NCBI RefSeq assembly: GCF_041248615.1
Contig: NZ_CP158426.1
Source of the DNA: Escherichia coli
Lineage (GTDB): Bacteria > Pseudomonadota > Gammaproteobacteria > Enterobacterales > Enterobacteriaceae
Direction: 5' to 3' (one strand)
DNA: 64,000 nucleotides
Shown: piece by piece, positions 1 through 41,503 of the stretch
How the letters are laid out: the number at the start of each line of letters is the position of its first letter
How positions within the stretch are numbered: position 1 is the stretch's first letter
The notes under the pieces: generated by a model
Database searches by the model: none
The model's input: only the letters and a program-made list of their open reading frames with translations
Told to the model about the DNA's origin: nothing
Program-made: the position numbers and the translations under genes

Positions 1-2001
1 CATTGCGAGGATCCGCGCACCGTGAATATCTTCCACAGGTGCTGGTGTTGCCTGCATTTCATCAAAGAAAGGCGATAAGCGAATATAGGTTGAATCCTCC
101 TGCCAACCGTAGGTATCGGATCGTGCGACGTTAATTTCCTTCCACTCTGCTGTGCCTTCAAAAACTTCTGCGTACTCTTTACGGAACATTTCTGTGGAGA
201 CTTGTTCTACCGCACGGGCAATTTCTTGTGCCGAGGGCCAGATATCTTTCAGATATACCGGGTCGCCTTTACGATCGTGACCAATAGGCTCAGAAGCGAG
301 GTTAATATTCATATTTCCCGCCAGCGCATAGGCAACCACCAGCGGCGGCGAGGCCAGCCAGTTAGTTTTAACCAGCGGATGGATACGGCCTTCAAAGTTA
401 CGGTTGCCGGACAGCACCGCACCGACGGTTAAATCGCCTTTTTTGATTGCCGTTTCGATAGGATCGGGCAATGGACCAGAGTTACCAATACAGGTGGTAC
501 AACCGTATCCCACAAGGTTAAATCCCAGTTCATCCAGATACGGTGTCAGTTTCGCTTTTGCCAGATAATCAGAAACGACTTTCGAGCCTGGTGCCAGCGA
601 CGCTTTGACCCACGGTTGCCGCTTGAGGCCCAGAGTTACGGCTTTTTTCGCCAGCAAACCTGCGGCCATCAGCACACTTGGGTTAGAGGTGTTGGTGCAC
701 GACGTTATCGCAGCAATGACCACCGCGCCATCAGGTAACTGATACTGATGTCCGTTCATAACATAATCGACCGGCTGGCGATCTTTATGCGTGGCATTTA
801 CTTCCAGTTCGTTACTGGCGGCAAATGCTTTTGGTACATCGGGCAGTGCAACGCGATCCTGTGGGCGTTTTGGCCCTGCCAGGCTCGCTTCAACGTCATT
901 CATATCCAGTTCTAACGTACTGGTAAAAATCGGTTCATCGCCCGGGTTACGCCACATGCCCTGCGCTTTGGCATATTTTTCGACCAACTCGACCTGATCT
1001 TCGCTGCGCCCGCTTAAACGCATGTAATCGAGGGTGACAGCATCGATTGGGAAGAAGCCACAGGTGGCACCATATTCTGGCGACATATTGGCAATGGTGG
1101 CGCGATCCGCCAGCGGTAGTGAATCCAGCCCATCACCATAAAATTCGACGAATTTCCCCACCACACCATGTTTGCGCAGCATTTGGGTAACGGTGAGAAC
1201 CAGGTCTGTGGCGGTAATACCTTCACGTAATTTTCCGGTGAGTTTAAAGCCCACTACGTCTGGGATAAGCATGGAAACCGGCTGACCTAACATTGCGGCT
1301 TCTGCTTCGATCCCCCCCACGCCCCACCCCAGCACGCCAAGGCCGTTGATCATGGTGGTGTGCGAGTCAGTACCAACGAGTGTATCCGGATAAGCAATCC
1401 ATTCACCGTCCTGCAATTCGCTCCACACTGCTTTGCCGAGATATTCGAGGTTAACCTGATGGCAAATGCCTGTGCCTGGCGGCACGACGCTAAAACGACT
1501 GAACGCCTGCTTTCCCCATTTCAGGAACACATAACGTTCGTGGTTGCGCTCCATTTCCAGGCGCACGTTTTCTTCAAATGCCTCATCATCACCAAAACGA
1601 TCGACGGTCACCGAGTGGTCAATGACCAGGTCGACCGGTGAGAGCGGGTTAACCTTTGCAGTATCGCCACCGAGGCGTTTAACCGCTTCGCGCATTGCCG
1701 CCAGATCAACAACGGCAGGTACGCCGGTAAAGTCCTGCATCAGCACCCTTGCCGGGCGGTAGGCAATTTCACGGTCAGCATGGGCATTTTTCAGCCATCC
1801 CGCCAGCGCGTGGATATCCTCTTCGGTAACCGAGTTACCATCCTGCCAGCGCAGCAGGTTTTCGAGCAAAACTTTGAGTGACTTGGGCAGACGGGTGATA
1901 TTGCCCAGTGATTTGGCAGCAAGCGGCAGGCTGTAGTAGTGGTAAGTTTTATCTTTGGCCTGCAACGTGTCCTTACTGGCTTCTCGTAGGGTTGACGACA
2001 T
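1..2001 (-). CDS. acnA: Aconitate hydratase A, partial (C-terminal end lies beyond the window start)
   Basis: Reverse-strand reading frame runs from an ATG at 2001 (N-terminus MSSTLREAS...) to the window edge with aconitase-like translation; synteny next to cysB. Not in the ORF track because it is truncated by the window. Confidence 0.93.
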
Positions 2002-2164
2002 AGCTCCTCCTTAATGACAGGGTTGCGACGCCCTGATTCTCTTCAGGGTGAATATTAAAGATAACACAAACATCGCGTAACGATTTGATAACAACCCAAA
2101 TTGATAAAAGAGGAGAAACCTTGTGGCAAAGCAAATGAAAACCCCGCCGCAGCGGGGTCAGGTA

Positions 2165-2260
2165 TCAGTGAGTAATGATCCAGAGGAATTCGGCCCAGAA
2201 GAGCATCGACAGAGAAAACGCGCCCATCCAGGACCAATATTTCATATTTGTGTTGATCAT
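2165..2260 (-). CDS. Small hydrophobic protein, 31 aa (MINTNMKYWSWMGAFSLSMLFWAEFLWIITH), about 160 bp upstream of acnA
   Basis: Short reverse-strand ORF with one predicted transmembrane segment, below the 60-aa track cutoff; resembles the small membrane proteins annotated upstream of acnA in K-12 (ymiA/yciX family region), exact name not certain. Confidence 0.4.
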   Translation of the reverse strand: MINTNMKYWSWMGAFSLSMLFWAEFLWIITH

Positions 2261-2373
2261 AGGCTACACCTTTAACGGTTATTACTTTGTGTTGAGATAA
2301 CTCAACCTGTTATTGCTGCGGTGTATTAAAAGCCCTTTAATTCATTAAAAATGGGTAATAAGAATGATGATAA

Positions 2374-2541
2374 TTATTGTTTCGGCTGATCATCTTCAGC
2401 AAACAGTTCTATAAAGGCTTGCTGCTGCGATGTTAGTTGCCAGTCGTCTGGAATAACGACGGAACATTCCCGTTTCGTTTCTGTGTCATTGTCACTATGC
2501 TGGCATAATGGTGACGACTCCAGTTGCTCCTGACCGACCAT
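2374..2541 (-). CDS. yciX: Small acidic protein YciX-like, 55 aa
   Basis: Track ORF 2374..2562; the internal Met at 2541 gives a 55-aa product (MVGQEQLESSPLCQH...) matching the size I recall for YciX; lies upstream of acnA. Confidence 0.5.
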   Translation of the reverse strand: MVGQEQLESSPLCQHSDNDTETKRECSVVIPDDWQLTSQQQAFIELFAEDDQPKQ

Positions 2542-2543
2542 AG

Positions 2544-2672
2544 TTATCCCCACACTTTCCAAATCAGCAGTGCGACAACCACCCAGAAAAGTGCAGAACC
2601 AAGAAAAACCGCCAGCCAGGCTTTACGTTTTAATTCAGGATCGCGGCGGGGTTCCTGATTTCCAGAAGGCAT
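2544..2672 (-). CDS. Small single-pass membrane protein, about 42-46 aa (…KAWLAVFLGSALFWVVVALLIWKVWG)
   Basis: Reverse-strand ORF whose TAA stop (2546..2544) sits 2 nt before the yciX ATG (2541), suggesting translational coupling; GAGG Shine-Dalgarno upstream of the Met at 2672; alternative start at 2684. Confidence 0.4.
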   Translation of the reverse strand: MPSGNQEPRRDPELKRKAWLAVFLGSALFWVVVALLIWKVWG

Positions 2673-2917
2673 TGCTAACCTCATATAATCGCCATCACTT
2701 ATCAGCAAGACGTTGAACGATTGGTGTAATTAATCATACGATGAGACAAATCCTAAAGAAACTTTAGTCAAAAATCCAGCGAATTTACGAATCGTCTCCA
2801 GTGAATAATTCAATCTTTTGACCTGAAATAGATATTTGAAAACTGGAATTTGCGAGGCGGGTAATTAGACACTACTTTACAGGTAATTTACCCTATAAAT
2901 ATGAGGGATAAAAATAT

Positions 2918-2926
2918 TGTGCACGG
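2918..2926. repeat. Left copy of 9-bp target-site duplication TGTGCACGG flanking IS1
   Basis: Exact 9-mer directly abuts the IS1 left end and is repeated at 3695..3703. Confidence 0.9.
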
Positions 2927-2981
2927 GGTGATGCTGCCAACTTACTGATTTAGTGTATGATGGTGTTTTTGAGGTGCTCCA

Positions 2982-3257
2982 GTGGCTTCTGTTTCTATCA
3001 GCTGTCCCTCCTGTTCAGCTACTGACGGGGTGGTGCGTAACGGCAAAAGCACCGCCGGACATCAGCGCTATCTCTGCTCTCACTGCCGTAAAACATGGCA
3101 ACTGCAGTTCACTTACACCGCTTCTCAACCCGGTACGCACCAGAAAATCATTGATATGGCCATGAATGGCGTTGGATGCCGGGCAACCGCCCGCATTATG
3201 GGCGTTGGCCTCAACACGATTTTCCGCCATTTAAAAAACTCAGGCCGCAGTCGGTAA
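2982..3257 (+). CDS. insA: IS1 InsA (transposition repressor / N-terminal part of the transposase)
   Basis: 91-aa [42 protein letters not shown]... characteristic of IS1 InsA. Confidence 0.95.
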
Positions 3258-3679
3258 CCTCGCGCATACAGCCGGGCAGTGACGTCATCGTCTGCGCGGA
3301 AATGGACGAACAGTGGGGATACGTCGGGGCTAAATCGCGCCAGCGCTGGCTGTTTTACGCGTATGACAGGCTCCGGAAGACGGTTGTTGCGCACGTATTC
3401 GGTGAACGCACTATGGCGACGCTGGGGCGTCTTATGAGCCTGCTGTCACCCTTTGACGTGGTGATATGGATGACGGATGGCTGGCCGCTGTATGAATCCC
3501 GCCTGAAGGGAAAGCTGCACGTAATCAGCAAGCGATATACGCAGCGAATTGAGCGGCATAACCTGAATCTGAGGCAGCACCTGGCACGGCTGGGACGGAA
3601 GTCGCTGTCGTTCTCAAAATCGGTGGAGCTGCATGACAAAGTCATCGGGCATTATCTGAACATAAAACACTATCAATAA
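3176..3679 (+). CDS. insB: IS1 InsB (transposase catalytic part, made as InsAB' fusion by -1 frameshift)
   Basis: 167-aa ORF overlapping insA in the -1 frame; characteristic IS1 InsB sequence. Confidence 0.93.
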
Positions 3680-3694
3680 GTTGGAGTCATTACC

Positions 3695-3703
3695 TGTGCA
3701 CGG
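3695..3703. repeat. Right copy of 9-bp target-site duplication TGTGCACGG flanking IS1
   Basis: Exact repeat of 2918..2926 immediately after the IS1 right end. Confidence 0.9.
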
Positions 3704-3721
3704 TATACAAATAAGTAACAA

Positions 3722-3763
3722 AAGAGAATATATTCCGGCACCTTCGCTACATAAAAGGTGCCG
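3722..3763 (-). terminator. Putative intrinsic terminator downstream of cysB
   Basis: Inverted repeat CGGCACCTT...AAGGTGCCG followed by a T-rich stretch on the minus strand, just past the cysB stop. Confidence 0.45.
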
Positions 3764-3779
3764 AAAATAACGCAAGAAA

Positions 3780-4778
<999 letters not shown>

Positions 4779-4906
4779 TCAGAACATCGTTTTTTCGTCA
4801 CACCTGGCGGGTGACTAATACGATTTAATAATAAAAAAGGTGCTAACTATAACCACTATATCATTTATAGCCTTAGTGTATAGGTGTGAAGAAAAAATAA
4901 TATGCA

Positions 4907-4940
4907 ATAAAAAAGGGCCGCTTTCGCGACCCTTTGTTTA
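4907..4940 (-). terminator. Putative intrinsic terminator downstream of topA
   Basis: GC-rich imperfect hairpin (GGGCCGC...GCGACCC) followed by a T-run on the minus strand, 25-55 bp past the topA stop. Confidence 0.55.
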
Positions 4941-4963
4941 TAAAAACCTGACAGAATTAAAGG

Positions 4964-7561
4964 TTATTTTTTCCCTTCAACCCATTTGCCATCAACATAA
5001 AATGCTGACCAGCCAGTCGCCTTTCCGTCTTTTTCCGAAGAGACATATTGCTGTTTGGTTTTACGGCTAAAGCGAACCATGGTCTTATTACCTTCCGGAT
5101 CCTGCTGTGGCGCATCGGCCAGATAACGCAGTTTTTCCGGCAGACGGTCGCGGAAGCGATAAAGCTCTTCCACCAATGGCGCACGTGTTTCACGCGATTT
5201 CGGGAAGGTATTGGCCGCCAGGAACACACCGGCAGCACCGTCACGCAGCACGAAATAGGCATCTGATTTTTCGCACGGCAGCTCAGGTAATGGCACCGGA
5301 TCTTCTTTCGGTGGTGCCACTTCGCCGTTACGTAAAATCTTACGTGTGTTTTTACACTCTTCGTTGGTGCAGGCCATGTATTTACCGAAACGCCCCATTT
5401 TCAGGTGCATTTCAGAGCCACATTTTTCACACTCAACGATCGGGCCGTCATAACCTTTAATGCGGAATTCGCCCTCTTCGATCTCGTAACCGTCGCAGGT
5501 TGGGTTATTACCACAGACATGCAACTTACGTTTCGGATCGATGAGATAGCTGTCCATCGCCGTGCCGCATTTCGGGCAACGACGTTTTGCGCGCAGCGCG
5601 TTGGTTTCAGCGTCTTCACCTTCCAGCACGTTCAGCACTTCGTTTTCCGGCACCAGGTTAATGGTGGTTTTGCAACGCTCTTTTGGCGGCAGCGCATAAC
5701 CAGAACAGCCAAGGAATACCCCGGTGCTCGCTGTGCGAATCCCCATTTTGCGACCACAAGTCGGGCAGTCAATGCTGGTCAGAACCATCTGGTTCGGGCG
5801 CATACCCCCCTCTTCCGGATCTTTTTCAGCTTTATCTAACTGCTGGGTGAAATCCGAGAAGAAGTGATCCAGTACAGCTTTCCACTCTGCTTCGTGATTT
5901 GCCACCTGGTCGAGGCTGTTTTCCATCTGCGCGGTGAAGTCGTAGTTCATTAACTCGCGGAAATTCTCTTCCAGGCGATCGGTGACGATTTCGCCCATTT
6001 TTTCCGCATAGAAACGACGATTTTCTACTCGCACATAGCCACGATCCTGAATGGTCGAAATGATCGATGCATAGGTAGACGGACGACCGATACCGCGTTT
6101 TTCCAGCTCTTTAACCAGCGATGCTTCACTAAAACGGGCTGGCGGCTTGGTAAAGTGCTGGGCTGGTGTCAGTTCAACGAGCGTCAGAGCATCGCCTTTA
6201 TCGACTGCCGGTAAGATACGATCTTCATCGCCTTTACGCAGTGCAGGCATCACTTTTGTCCAGCCATCAAAGCGCAAAATACGACCGCGTGCTTTCAGGC
6301 GGAAATCGCCCGCACCAACGGTCAGCGTCGTGGAGTCATATTTCGCTGGGGTCATCTGGCAGGCAACGAACTGACGCCAGATTAACTGGTACAGTTTCTG
6401 CGCATCTGCTTCCATATCCTTCAGCGATTCCGCCATCACATTGACGTCAGAAGGACGAATCGCTTCGTGCGCTTCCTGTGAGTTTTCTTTGCTGGCGTAC
6501 TGATTCGGACTTTCCGGCAGATATTTCTTACCAAAATTATCGCTGATATAACCGCGAACCATATTTACCGCGTCCTGACTCAGGTTAGTGGAGTCGGTAC
6601 GCATGTAAGTGATATAGCCTGCTTCATACAAACGCTGCGCCATCATCATGGTTTTTTTCACGCCAAAACCAAGACGGGTGCTGGCAGCTTGTTGCAGCGT
6701 AGAGGTAATAAAAGGAGCGCCAGGTTTACTGGTTGTCGGTTTGTCTTCACGTTCCAGCACGCTGTAGCGCGCTTTTTCCAGCAGACTTACCGCAGCCTGA
6801 GTTTGTTCTTTGTTGACCGGGCGGAACGGTTTGTCGTTCTGATGAGTCACCTGCAACGCCAACGCATCACCAGATGGCGTGGTTGTGCTGGCATCGACTT
6901 CCCAGAACTCTTCCGGTACGAACGCTTTAATTTCACGCTCACGCTCGACCACCAGTCGAACCGCCACCGACTGAACACGACCTGCAGACAGACCACGAGC
7001 GATCTTTTTCCACAGCAGCGGCGAAACCATATACCCCACCACGCGGTCCATAAAGCGACGCGCCTGCTGGGCATTAACACGATCAATATTCAGCTCACCT
7101 GGTTTGTTAAATGCCTGGCGGATCGCGTTTTTAGTAATTTCGTTAAACACCACTCGGCTATAGCGCGCATCATCACCACCAATCACTTCCCGCAGGTGCC
7201 ATGCAATGGCTTCCCCTTCGCGGTCAAGGTCGGTTGCGAGATAGATGTGGTCGGCTTTTTCAGCCAGTTGTTTCAGTTCAGAGACGACCTTCTCTTTACC
7301 AGGCAACACTTCATAGTGCGCCTCCCAATTGTGCCACGGGTCAACCCCCATACGGTTGACGAGAGCGCCACGTTCATCCTTTTTAGGCTTTTTAGCCGTC
7401 TTGGTGGAGGTAGAGTCGGCACTCTTTTTGGCAGCTGAGCCACTGGTCGGCAAATCGCGGATGTGACCGACGCTGGATTTCACCACGTAGTCACTACCCA
7501 GATACTTGTTGATCGTTTTGGCTTTTGCCGGGGACTCAACGATGACAAGAGCTTTACCCAT
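4964..7561 (-). CDS. topA: DNA topoisomerase I
   Basis: 865-aa product starting [22 protein letters not shown]... with C-terminal zinc-ribbon repeats; track ORF extends 14 codons upstream to 7603, but the conserved N-terminus starts at the Met at 7561. Confidence 0.96.
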
Positions 7562-7940
7562 ATTCACCTTACCTAATTTGATTCTTCCAGGAATGCGTCG
7601 CACGTTGATAAACCTTCCACTGGCAACGAGTTACCGATATGGACTCGCTCTCTGCGGATATCAACCCCTTGTCGTGACTCTGTTCACGAAAATTCAGGTG
7701 ACTGAGTTAACAGGTCTTGGCCTACAGGCGCTATAGCACGACGGAATTTTGGTCGAATGTCAAGCAAATCTATTGCCAGATTGACGAAAGCGTCACACTG
7801 TACCTGATAAAATCCGATACGCAACTTTATTAGCATGCAAAATCCAAAGTTGCCAGTAAGGCGCTCTTGCCACCAGCGTGGTATATTTGTCTGCAAGCCA
7901 TGCCTGGCGTAGACTAATGTCCTTGTTTAAGGAGTAAATA

Positions 7941-8192
7941 ATGAACAAAGAGACACAACCCATCGACCGCGAGACGCTGTTGAAAGAGGCCAACAAAATC
8001 ATTCGTGAGCATGAGGATACGCTCGCAGGGATTGAAGCCACCGGCGTCACGCAGCGTAATGGCGTGCTGGTATTTACCGGCGACTACTTTTTAGATGAAC
8101 AAGGATTGCCAACAGCCAAAAGCACCGCGGTGTTTAATATGTTCAAACACCTGGCCCATGTGCTTTCAGAAAAATATCATCTGGTTGATTAA
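7941..8192 (+). CDS. yciN: Uncharacterized protein YciN
   Basis: 83-aa [33 protein letters not shown]...; conserved position between topA and sohB. Confidence 0.85.
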
Positions 8193-8202
8193 AAATAAAT
8201 AT

Positions 8203-8227
8203 CCTCCGGCATAGCCGGAGGTTTTTC
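8203..8227 (+). terminator. Intrinsic terminator after yciN
   Basis: Hairpin CCTCCGGC-ATA-GCCGGAGG followed by TTTTTC, 11 bp after the yciN stop. Confidence 0.7.
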
Positions 8228-8900
8228 AAATGCGCCTGTAAGGCTCTGTTACCAGCCGCGCCCTAACAGGCGCATACGATCTGACATTTGCATTCAACTT
8301 CGTTACTTACGGCCCGTAAACGGGCTGCCCGGATAGGGAATCGATAACTGCTCCCCCATTTTATCCTCTTCAAGCTGGTGCTTTATGTAGTCCTGTATCT
8401 TCGCCGTGTTCTTACCCACCGTATCGACATAGTACCCTCGGCACCAGAACTCCCTGTTTCTGTATTTGAATTTCAAATCCCCAAACTGCTCGTAAAGCAT
8501 CAGACTGCTTTTCCCTTTCAGATATCCCATAAAGCCGGATACGCTCATTTTGGGTGGGATTTCCACAAGCATATGGATATGATCTGCGCAGCACTCTGCT
8601 TCCAGAATCCGTACGCTTTTCCACTCACACAGCTTTCTCAAAATACTGCCTATCGCCCTACGCTTCTCTCCGTAAAACGCCAGTCTTCGGTATTTCGGCG
8701 CAAAAACTATGTGATATTTACAGTTCCAGCGGGTGTGCGCTAAGCTCTTTTCGTCCCCCATTGGGACCCCCTTTTGATTTCTTGTTTGACACTTGCAGTT
8801 GCCAGACCGCAAGGTGTTTTAACAAATCAAAAGGGGTTTTAATAACTGGCTCAAAGCTGAAAGCTTTCCGGAACCCCCAGCCTAGCTGGGGGTTTTCTGT
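8228..8900 (-). mobile_element. IS200-like insertion sequence (IS200/IS605 family); boundaries approximate
   Basis: Contains an intact IS200-type tnpA, a structured 5' leader with an RBS-sequestering inverted repeat and a perfect terminal hairpin (8874..8892), plus subterminal palindromes near 8231..8273 and 8307..8330. This family makes no target duplication, so ends cannot be set precisely by eye. Confidence 0.8.
8303..8761 (-). CDS. tnpA: IS200-type Y1 (HuH) transposase TnpA, 152 aa
   Basis: Translation MGDEKSLAHTRWNCKYHIVFAPKYRR...HIHMLVEIPPK...GYYVDTVGKN is near-identical to the IS200 TnpA I recall (HuH motif HIHML, catalytic Tyr region). Track ORF 8303..8812 has an upstream extension; the Met at 8761 has a GGGGG Shine-Dalgarno. 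Confidence 0.9.
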   Translation of the reverse strand: MGDEKSLAHTRWNCKYHIVFAPKYRRLAFYGEKRRAIGSILRKLCEWKSVRILEAECCADHIHMLVEIPPKMSVSGFMGYLKGKSSLMLYEQFGDLKFKYRNREFWCRGYYVDTVGKNTAKIQDYIKHQLEEDKMGEQLSIPYPGSPFTGRK

Positions 8901-8908
8901 GCACAACA

Positions 8909-8935
8909 AAACGCGAGGTCTTAGCCTCGCGTTTG
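8909..8935 (-). terminator. Putative intrinsic terminator downstream of sohB
   Basis: Hairpin AACGCGAGG-TCTTA-GCCTCGCGTT followed by a T-run on the minus strand, directly after the sohB stop at 8940. Confidence 0.6.
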
Positions 8936-8939
8936 TCTT

Positions 8940-9989
8940 TTACATCAATGGTTTTTGCCCCCGCTGCCACCAGCGTAACAACAATCGATCGGCGCTCTCT
9001 GCCGCGCTGCCGGTGAATCGGTCAATGAGTCGTTTACGCTGCATATAGCGTACATTGACCACTTCACGGCCTTCCATCAGGCTAAGAATAACTTCATCAC
9101 TGGTGTTGATTTCATCAACCAGGCCTTTCTCTACCGCCTGTTGTCCGTACCAGTGTTCACCCGTTGCCACCTGATCAATATTCAGAGACGGACGCATACG
9201 CTTCACAAAATCTTTAAATAACTGATGCGTTTCGTTCAGCTCTTCGCGGAATTTCTCCCGCCCTTCTTCGGTGTTTTCACCCAGCAAAGTCAGCGTGCGC
9301 TTATACTGCCCGGCGGTGTGCAGTTCGATATCAATATCTTTGCTTTTCAGGAAGCGGTTAAAGTTGGGCATTTGTGCCACCACGCCAATGGAACCCACAA
9401 TAGCAAACGGTGCGGAAACAATTTTGTCCGCCACACAGGCCATCATGTAACCGCCACTGGCAGCAACTTTGTCTACCGTAACAGTTAAAGGAATGTTTTT
9501 ATCACGCAGACGCTGCAGCTGCGAAGCCGCCAGCCCGTAACCATGCACCATGCCACCAGGGCTTTCCAGACGTAGCACAACCTGATCCTGCGGTTTGAAT
9601 GCTGCGAGTACCGCCGTTATCTCTTCACGTAGCGAGTTCACTTCATGGGCGTCCATGCTGCCTTTAAAATCCAGCACCCAGACGCGAGGTTTACTGTCAG
9701 TTGCCACCTCGCCCAGTTTGGCTTTCGCTTTTGCTGCTTTCGCTTCTTGCTTGTGCTTTTTCTTCTGCGCTTTGTGCCACTGTTTTTGCTGATGTGAGTC
9801 CATCAGCGCCGCGGCCAGTTCTTCTTTCATCTCCTTATACTGTTCGCTGAGATTGTTGACCCGTAACTCGCCACGCTGGCGTTTATTACGTTGAGCAACA
9901 TTGACAATAATGGCGGCAATCGCCGCAATCGCTAGCACAACGGTAACGATTTTCGCCAAAAACAAACCATATTCAGACAACAATTCCAC
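8940..9989 (-). CDS. sohB: Probable periplasmic protease SohB (S49 peptidase family)
   Basis: 349-aa ORF; N-terminal TM segment and ClpP/SppA-like core; conserved position. Confidence 0.93.
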   Translation of the reverse strand: MELLSEYGLFLAKIVTVVLAIAAIAAIIVNVAQRNKRQRGELRVNNLSEQYKEMKEELAAALMDSHQQKQWHKAQKKKHKQEAKAAKAKAKLGEVATDSKPRVWVLDFKGSMDAHEVNSLREEITAVLAAFKPQDQVVLRLESPGGMVHGYGLAASQLQRLRDKNIPLTVTVDKVAASGGYMMACVADKIVSAPFAIVGSIGVVAQMPNFNRFLKSKDIDIELHTAGQYKRTLTLLGENTEEGREKFREELNETHQLFKDFVKRMRPSLNIDQVATGEHWYGQQAVEKGLVDEINTSDEVILSLMEGREVVNVRYMQRKRLIDRFTGSAAESADRLLLRWWQRGQKPLM

Positions 9990-11605: not shown

Positions 11606-11914
11606 TCAAGCGGCAATAGCGAAATTCAGAATACGTGTAATCTCATTCAAATGTCCCGGATATGCTTCATGATTCTCAGCGTCAACATCTTCAATAAATA
11701 ATATCAGTTCAGTAATTAACGCATTAGCATCGTCATAATTTATCCCGGCTAACTCTGGCGAAGTTTCAGTACCATAGTTAATCGTCAGGTTGTTCATAAC
11801 TGTGAGGATATGGATAAAATATTTATGACAAACATTACATGTGGTTTTATTACCCAAAGTATTATACAGCATATCAAGTAATGCCAGTATTCTACGGTTT
11901 TGCACATCGTTCAT
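11606..11914 (-). CDS. Hypothetical 102-aa protein (no signal peptide), second gene of the AT-rich islet
   Basis: ORF in AT-rich DNA, 10 bp downstream of the lipoprotein gene on the same strand; contains a Cys-x2-Cys-His motif (CNVCH); no family recognised. Confidence 0.6.
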   Translation of the reverse strand: MNDVQNRRILALLDMLYNTLGNKTTCNVCHKYFIHILTVMNNLTINYGTETSPELAGINYDDANALITELILFIEDVDAENHEAYPGHLNEITRILNFAIAA

Positions 11915-11924
11915 AAAAAGCCTC

Positions 11925-12926
11925 CTATAACATTATTCCGCTGGCAATAAGTAATTTTGCCAGCCCCTCAGACGCCTTTAACCCACTAATGACCTGTGCG
12001 CGTAATATTTCATTTAATCTTTTTTGTTCAGCTGCCGTGCGTGTTTTATTAACGTATAAGCTTTTTAGATAATCACCCTTATCTATAAAGGCATTTAAAG
12101 CCTCAATCGCAGGCATGGCAGGTGCCGATGCCTGTAGTCTGGTTTCATTCACATTGATTACTGAACTTAGAAACTCCTTCCTGTTTTTCAGAGTGTTAAA
12201 CTCTGTATTCTTAGAGTTTTTAGATGCTGTATTATAATAAAACATATTATCATGCACATTCGCAAAGGTATAATTTTCAATCTTATTGCTTTTTGTATAA
12301 ATATCATTGCGCAAAACCGCCATGTTCTTTATAAGTCTTACCCAGTTTTCATCTGCCGTTTTGCCTATTTTTCCAGAATTGACTTTAATTATATATAACT
12401 CATTGAAATAATTTACCAAATCTTTAACCGCTGCTGCAGATTGAACTAAATCTTTGCTATGTGAAACACCAAGTAGTGTTTGTGCGTTGTTTGCGTGATC
12501 CAGAGCCTGTTTAAGTAATGCCACTTGCTGACTTTCCGTAGTTGCCATATCCTTTGTCAGAAGTTCCACATAAGCGCTCATGCTATTAATGACTTCCATT
12601 GAAGCCAGTAATTTTTCTTTCTCGAAAGGGACTAATTGTACTTGTTTTGTATTTGGCCCTGAACGCTGGCATAATTTTCCGCCATTCCCATCACCGCCTA
12701 TATCAATGGTATAATCAGGTCGCAGAGCACAATCCGGATTAGTCGCGTAGAAATTAACAAGGAAGTTTTCACGAGAAGCATAGTATTGTTTAAAGAAACT
12801 TGCATTCGCCGCTACTGCTTTGTTACCCGCAGTAATAACAGTTTCAGCTTGTTCGTTTTTCAATGCTTCAGTTGCACAACCTGAAAGCATTAACAGCGAT
12901 AGAAATATTCCACTATATCTAATCAT
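11925..12926 (-). CDS. Hypothetical 333-aa predicted lipoprotein, first gene of the AT-rich islet
   Basis: N-terminus MIRYSGIFLSLLMLSGC has a hydrophobic core and an LSGC lipobox (signal peptidase II type); the rest is Asn/Lys-rich with no recognisable catalytic motif; codon usage is AT-biased. Confidence 0.7.
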   Translation of the reverse strand: MIRYSGIFLSLLMLSGCATEALKNEQAETVITAGNKAVAANASFFKQYYASRENFLVNFYATNPDCALRPDYTIDIGGDGNGGKLCQRSGPNTKQVQLVPFEKEKLLASMEVINSMSAYVELLTKDMATTESQQVALLKQALDHANNAQTLLGVSHSKDLVQSAAAVKDLVNYFNELYIIKVNSGKIGKTADENWVRLIKNMAVLRNDIYTKSNKIENYTFANVHDNMFYYNTASKNSKNTEFNTLKNRKEFLSSVINVNETRLQASAPAMPAIEALNAFIDKGDYLKSLYVNKTRTAAEQKRLNEILRAQVISGLKASEGLAKLLIASGIML

Positions 12927-24407: not shown

Positions 24408-24413
24408 TCCCAC

Positions 24414-24441
24414 AGCCGCCAGTACCGCTGGCGGCATTTTA
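24414..24441 (+). terminator. trp operon terminator (trp t)
   Basis: Hairpin GCCGCCAG-TACCG-CTGGCGGC followed by ATTTT, 7 bp after the trpA stop. Confidence 0.8.
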
Positions 24442-24787
24442 ACTTTCTTTAACGAAGCCGGAAAAATCCTAAATTCATTTTATATTTATCTTTTTACCGT
24501 TTCGCTTACCCCTGTCGAACGTCAACTTACGTTATTTTTCCGCCCAACAGTAATATAATCAAACAAATTAATCCCGCAACATAACACCAGTAAAATAAAT
24601 AATTTTCTCTAAGTCACTTATTCCTCAGGCAATTGTTAATATATCCAGAACGTTCCTCATAATATATTTTCCCACTTTCTTCTCGTTACGCTTAATTTGA
24701 CTAATTCTCATTAGCGACTAATTTTAATGAGTGTCGACACACAACACTCATATTAATCAAACAATGCAACGCAACGGGAGAAATAAC

Positions 24788-26965: not shown

Positions 26966-27159
26966 TTTTTAAATATTTTCGCTACGCAAATATTAACTCG
27001 TTCGCCACTTGCCGCGGTTTGCCCACGCCTGAAGGCCAGCAATTACCTCCGCTTTACAAAGATATGCTTTTCCATACAAGACCTGATGCTGCCACCCGAG
27101 GCTTAACCAGGGTACAATTGCCCGCTAATTAACACCTGCATAAAACTCAAGGAGAGTGC

Positions 27160-41027: not shown

Positions 41028-41503
41028 GGTTAGCTCCGAAGCAAAAGCCGGATAATGTTAGCCATAAATAAGGTTAAAAAGACGCGCTGACAATACGCCT
41101 TTTGACAGCATTTTTCACCTCCTAACTACTTAAAATTGCTATCATTCGTTATTGTTATCTGGTTGTGTAAAACATGATAATGTAGCCAACAAATCATACT
41201 ACAATTTATTAACTGTTAGCTATAATGGCGAAAAGCGATGCTGAAAGGTGTCAGCTTTGCAAAAATTTGATTTGGATCACGTAATCAGTACCCAGAAGTG
41301 AGTAATCTTGCTTACGCCACCTGGAAGTGACGCATTAGAGATAATAACTCTAATGTTTAAACTCTTTTAGTAAATCACAGTGAGTGTGAGCGCGAGTAAG
41401 CTTTTGATTTTCATCGGTTAAGCAAATCATCACCGCACTGACTATACTCTCGTATTCGAGCAGATGATTTACTAAAAAAGTTTAACATTATCAGGAGAGC
41501 ATT

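Follow-up and report, generated by a model that had tools for sequence, protein, structure and literature searches.

An IS1B-like element in the cysB-ymiA spacer of Escherichia coli NRZ14408: a probable recent insertion into a spacer repeatedly used by IS1

IS1 transposes by an established route that comprises a programmed frameshift, binding of the terminal repeats, a staggered cut of the target and repair of the gaps, and the element prefers AT-rich intergenic DNA. Its InsA protein is a repressor that binds the inverted repeats. Applied to the copy studied here, a -1 ribosomal frameshift at the A6C motif would join InsA to the InsB frame and yield the DDE transposase InsAB', which would bind the 23-bp terminal repeats and insert the element at a target cut with a stagger of 9 bp. 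When the gaps are repaired, these 9 bp would be copied and leave a target duplication; for IS1, this duplication usually has 9 bp and occasionally 8-10 bp. The target between cysB and ymiA agrees with the preference for AT-rich intergenic DNA, and the same spacer has been used repeatedly in other lineages.

Described relatives of the element are found in K-12 MG1655, where IS1B and IS1C have the same length of 768 bp and are identical to our copy at 766/768 nucleotides. For IS1B, the InsA protein is identical, and the inverted repeats, the A6C site and the overall organisation are the same. The differences to IS1B and IS1C are limited to two substitutions (positions 3053 and 3630) and the genomic location; the sole amino-acid difference to IS1B is residue 217 of InsAB', which is L in our copy and Q in K-12. 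IS1A of K-12 shows 7 mismatches (761/768 identical). A second described system concerns the promoters that IS1 can create. According to PMC8764528, which cites Prentki et al. 1986, the inverted repeat of IS1 has an outward-directed -35 element that is able to form hybrid promoters. The cases covered there (Prentki et al. 1986; afaA in ST131, PMC8764528) combine an outward -35-like hexamer in the terminal repeat with a -10-like hexamer in the flank after 16-18 nt. The same arrangement is observed at our locus, with the difference that the motif in NRZ14408 is known as a sequence match to the consensus, at 9/12 positions.

We analysed one stretch of 64,000 nt (the window), which is identical over 64,000/64,000 positions to 2947672-3011671 of NZ_LT599825.1, i.e., the chromosome of the clinical E. 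coli strain NRZ14408. Features and coordinates are compiled in Table 1. Reading positions 2700-4100, we found the canonical left IS1 end GGTGATGCTGCCAACTTACTGAT and a right end that closes with ...AAGTTGGAGTCATTACC. The repeat finder reports terminal arms of 23 nt each with 78% complementarity, and the pattern of the left repeat has 1 match in the window (0 expected by chance). The -1 frame of insB stays open up to the end of the fusion gene. The InsAB' protein scores 243.8 bits against the NCBIfam model NF033558 'IS1 family transposase' (cutoff 100), and its Pfam domains Zn_ribbon_InsA, HTH_Tnp_IS1 and DDE_Tnp_IS1 (PF03811, PF12759, PF03400) all exceed their gathering scores. RefSeq already has an annotation at this place, 'IS1-like element IS1B family transposase, programmed frameshift'. 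That is, length, inverted repeats, the insA/A6C/insB arrangement, family models, target duplication and near-identity to a known isoform all confirm the element as IS1. The span, the open frames and the position of the A6C motif also bear out a preliminary description of this DNA, which had named a full 768-bp IS1 with intact insA, insB and frameshift motif.

Table 1. Features of the IS1 locus in the window and IS1 insertions mapped in and near the cysB-ymiA spacer. Single coordinates of mapped insertions give the window-equivalent end of the left flank; locus coordinates are marked as such.
Feature	Position	Strand	Remarks
IS1, complete, IS1B-like	2927-3694	+	768 bp; read from window sequence
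IRL, left terminal inverted repeat	2927-2949	+	GGTGATGCTGCCAACTTACTGAT exact; repeat finder
IRR, right terminal inverted repeat	3672-3694	+	repeat finder
Target-site duplication, left copy, TGTGCACGG	2918-2926		exact 9-nt direct repeat; repeat finder
Target-site duplication, right copy, TGTGCACGG	3695-3703		exact 9-nt direct repeat; repeat finder
insA	2982-3257	+	91 aa; zinc ribbon and HTH; ORF and Pfam
A6C (AAAAAAC), -1 programmed frameshift site	3233-3239	+	sequence; RefSeq CDS labelled 'programmed frameshift'
insAB' fusion transposase	2982-3679	+	232 aa via -1 frameshift
Promoter-like hybrid motif	2911-2940	-	-35 in IRL, -10-like in flank; consensus scan; points toward ymiA
ymiA	2544-2684	-	first gene of ymiA-yciX-ymiC operon; RefSeq
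cysB	3780-4754	-	convergent with insAB'; coding sequence untouched; RefSeq
cysB intrinsic terminator hairpin	3733-3766	-	13 pairs and T-rich tail; intact
IS1, PCN061 group	2755	+	target duplication CAAATCCTA
IS1, ECCTRSRTH03	2764	+	no target duplication; 107-bp adjacent deletion; locus 1001-1768
IS1, EF7-18-58	2776	+	target duplication CAAAAATC
IS1, strain 1283 (major group)	2776	-	target duplication CAAAAATC
IS1, MY1-8	2778	+	target duplication AAAATCCA
IS1, PEC1013	2801	+	target duplication CGTCTCCAG
IS1, UTME strains (e.g. UTME-9)	2803	+	target duplication TCTCCAGTG
IS1, PEC389	2907	-	target duplication ATATGAGGG
IS1, NRZ14408 (window copy)	2926	+	target duplication TGTGCACGG
IS1, SY3626 (NZ_CP059283.1, SY3626_hybrid)	2926	-	target duplication TGTGCACGG; locus 1651-2418
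IS1, YPE10	last cysB codons, locus 1745-2512	reverse	target duplication CGGCAGTTT
IS1, CUVET18-789	last cysB codons, locus 1747-2514	reverse	target duplication CAGTTTTA

We are highly confident that this intact IS1B-like element transposed into the spacer between cysB and ymiA in a recent ancestor of NRZ14408, and that it is in all likelihood neutral or almost neutral. The site is uninterrupted in MG1655 (AAAAATATTGTGCACGGTATAGAAATAAG), with a single TGTGCACGG and no IS1. Isolate 362 (NZ_OW967178.1), which is the best relative at the locus with 1 mismatch over 11,273 bp against the window without IS1, likewise has an empty site with a single TGTGCACGG; it also shares the neighbouring IS200 of the window. 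Both flanks of the element are collinear with isolate 362 and MG1655. When searching both strands of the 64 kb, we found no copy of TGTGCACGG besides the two that border IS1. When we probed the left junction with 300 bp of sequence spanning it, NRZ14408 itself gave the only contiguous match among the 5,426 complete E. coli genomes. Given the empty sites and this junction count, we consider the insertion recent, simple and private. It is accordingly a simple transposition and no rearrangement breakpoint, and it is younger than the split from isolate 362. The dating as recent is supported by the distribution in the population together with one close relative.

These comparisons agree with the preliminary description in several points. 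It had reported a perfect 9-bp duplication, which is matched by two copies of TGTGCACGG compared to one in MG1655 and isolate 362, and it had expected no IS1 here in K-12 MG1655, as we find. It had also proposed a comparison with the reference cysB-acnA intergenic sequence, which returned an empty site with one TGTGCACGG in MG1655. Its reading as a relatively recent simple insertion is upheld by the junction count and the site of isolate 362. In our literature searches on IS1 with cysB/acnA, on insertion sequences at ymiA/yciX and on IS1 hotspots, this site was not described.

The gene order around the element is acnA, ymiC, yciX, ymiA, IS1, cysB, topA, i.e., the reverse of K-12, with all host genes on the minus strand. 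The spacer between cysB and ymiA has 318 bp, is non-coding and shows 35% GC. Transcription of IS1 runs toward the 3' end of cysB, while its left end faces ymiA. We measured 38 bp from the IS1 end to the cysB terminator hairpin and 242 bp from the IS1 start to the ymiA ATG (2684), close to the about 40 bp and about 240 bp given before for the hairpin and the small-ORF cluster. The 242 bp are intact, and the hairpin is equally present at the empty site of isolate 362. An effect on the distal acnA promoter, which the preliminary description had considered, is unlikely since 926 bp, including the ymiA-yciX-ymiC operon, separate IS1 from the acnA ATG (2001) downstream. This promoter was reportedly placed about 407 bp upstream by Cunningham, Gruer and Guest in 1997.

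The 242 bp beside ymiA probably hold its Mg2+/PhoQP-responsive promoter. A σ70 consensus scan of the empty spacer of isolate 362 returned no promoter, which fits an activator-dependent promoter. When up to 3 mismatches were allowed, the PhoP-box pattern KGTTTA-N5-KGTTTA matched 190 times in the window and was discarded as too unspecific. As a guess, the ymiA promoter might use the hexamer TATGAT at 2738-2733 (minus strand), with overlapping PhoP-like hexamers of 3 mismatches upstream at 2770-2743. If so, IS1 would be located about 190 bp upstream of the -10 hexamer and would leave this promoter intact. According to PMC11429745, the ymiA-yciX-ymiC operon is stress-regulated and overexpression of YmiA causes a growth phenotype.

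A neutral or nearly neutral insertion is the most likely reading. The coding sequence and terminator of cysB are both intact, and so is the 242-bp stretch on the ymiA side. Three effects are possible: a weak constitutive hybrid promoter might read toward ymiA, IS1 might block any read-through from cysB into ymiA, and the additional IS1 copy might serve homologous recombination. An Rfam search at gathering thresholds over window positions 1-9000 gave no match between 2333 and 8771; the spacer thus holds no known RNA family that IS1 could disrupt. The same search placed a full-length STnc180 match (198.8 bits) on the minus strand at 2131-2333, just upstream of acnA, where it covers the small ORF ymiC (2165-2260).

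The first of these possible effects is linked to a motif at the left end of the element. Here, the -35 hexamer TTGGCA (2940-2935) lies inside the left repeat, and the flank contributes AATATT or TATTTT at a spacing of 16 or 18 nt. The motif is located about 225 bp upstream of ymiA. The same scan detects it where IS1 is present; isolate 362, whose spacer is empty, lacks it. For the region, the promoter scan reports 3 sites compared to 2.4 expected from shuffled sequences, such that the motif has no statistical weight of its own. We therefore treat it as a testable candidate for a promoter directed toward ymiA.

We then asked how often the spacer is occupied in other genomes. Of the 5,421 genomes having the locus, 4,959 match a probe composed of the ymiA and cysB anchors only without a break, and the spacer is interrupted in the other 462. 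About 411 of the 462 interruptions are due to IS1, i.e., about 8% of the genomes carry IS1 in this spacer. Probes that join an anchor with an IS1 end assign 29 genomes to the orientation of the window and 382 to the opposite one. Among the opposite-orientation matches listed, 59/60 share the span of strain 1283 with the 8-bp target CAAAAATC (window 2769-2776). The carriage of about 8% thus probably comes mostly from one insertion inherited within a clade.

Besides this major group, IS1 is found at further sites (Table 1). In total, we count at least 14 combinations of position and orientation, spread over about 270 bp and including both orientations; as the listing covers 60 of the 382 reverse-orientation genomes, sites on the ymiA side of the major one are perhaps under-counted. 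Two targets, TGTGCACGG and CAAAAATC, were used in both orientations. In SY3626, IS1 occupies the same 9 bp as in the window, is inverted and differs from the window copy at 47/768 positions (94% identical). The copies differ mutually by up to 50/768 positions, which confirms the insertions as independent events. Compared to the window copy, the elements in SY3626, PCN061, strain 1283, UTME-9 and PEC389 belong to the same family, lie in the same 318-bp spacer and have duplications of 8-9 bp, whereas positions, orientations and variants differ (3 to 47 mismatches).

Some of the mapped insertions have peculiarities of their own. The pattern in ECCTRSRTH03 is the signature of an adjacent deletion mediated by IS1, and FDAARGOS_943 has the same span. 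The copies in CUVET18-789 and YPE10 are independent, lie 2 bp apart and replace the C-terminus of CysB; the annotated cysB coding sequences comprise 990 nt and 993 nt, respectively, compared to the usual 975.

To relate these counts to other spacers, we selected two controls from the same window, matched in length and GC content; counts are over genomes and are not phylogeny-aware. For the trpA-yciG spacer (24408-24787; 380 bp, 35.8% GC), IS1 is located nearby in 19 genomes with 17 distinct spans, of which about 13 are inside the spacer, such that the density of positions is similar to that of cysB-ymiA. The ychT-adhE spacer (41112-41503; 392 bp, 35.5% GC) showed no IS1 in the genomes searched. 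The reading of cysB-ymiA as an exceptional hotspot, based on the 462 genomes and at least 14 positions, was dropped given the similar density in trpA-yciG. The recurrent hits probably reflect the normal target preference of IS1. On this evidence, i.e., with two controls, cysB-ymiA is one of the permissive AT-rich regions favoured by IS1 and not an outlier.

The numbers could also be read as a trace of selection. That is, IS1 in the spacer would be kept because it rewires the PhoQP-controlled ymiA-yciX-ymiC unit (and acnA) or alters cysB, and in NRZ14408 the hybrid promoter would drive ymiA transcription independent of Mg2+. The frequency of interruption, the range of positions and orientations, the entry of different IS1 variants into the same 9 bp, the promoter-like motif created by the insertion and the regulation and growth phenotype cited above would all suit such a scenario. 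However, the trpA-yciG control with its about 13 positions suggests that repeated hits are expected from the preference of IS1 in a permissive AT-rich spacer, and the predominance of one site among the reverse-orientation matches listed fits inheritance in a clade. Furthermore, the sites are spread along the spacer in both orientations with no common regulatory outcome evident, and the window insertion is private to one genome. We thus judge selection to be improbable as an explanation. Slightly less probable still is its specific form, in which the spacer insertions are recurrent selected mutations that uncouple ymiA-yciX-ymiC, and possibly acnA, from PhoQP/Mg2+, with constitutive ymiA expression from the hybrid promoter in NRZ14408. 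Leads are limited to the candidate hybrid promoter and to the repeated entry of IS1 into the spacer, and neither exceeds the known behaviour of IS1. If an effect on transcription of the PhoQP-regulated operon were true, the locus would provide a natural case of regulatory variation driven by an insertion sequence.

It is very improbable that the element reflects an assembly artefact, a rearrangement breakpoint or part of a composite transposon. Assemblies are well known to go wrong at insertion-sequence copies, and the sequence record is labelled linear. However, TGTGCACGG occurs once at the empty site and is perfectly duplicated here, which a misplaced repeat would not bring about, the flanks follow both MG1655 and isolate 362 without a break in collinearity, and we found no second IS1 fragment in the 64-kb window. 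An ancestral IS1 that was lost elsewhere by precise excision has no direct support, apart from the fact that the same 9 bp are occupied in SY3626. This reading is almost certainly wrong and in our view effectively refuted, since the junction occurs in a single genome, the site is empty in the closest relative at the locus, precise excision would have to have happened independently thousands of times and the inverted SY3626 copy with its 47 differences points to a separate event and not to the shared ancestral element at an identical position that would have contradicted the preliminary description.

The simple insertion in NRZ14408 is real but ordinary, i.e., a well-known and already annotated element at a private site. 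It can be used as a marker of this strain and adds an IS1 copy for recombination, and the one spacer insertion that is carried by several hundred genomes could serve lineage typing.

Further features of the window were observed along with the IS1 locus. A tnpA gene of the IS200/IS605 family (8303-8761, minus strand) is located between yciN and sohB and is common to isolate 362; directly upstream of it, Rfam reports an STnc490 match (8771-8894, 146 bits). Two hypothetical-protein genes (11606-12926, minus strand) between cobO and rluB are also present in isolate 362 and are presumably absent from K-12. Finally, RefSeq lists a pseudogene at 27043-27132 between ompW and yciC, which is a YkgJ-family gene fragment of 90 nt.
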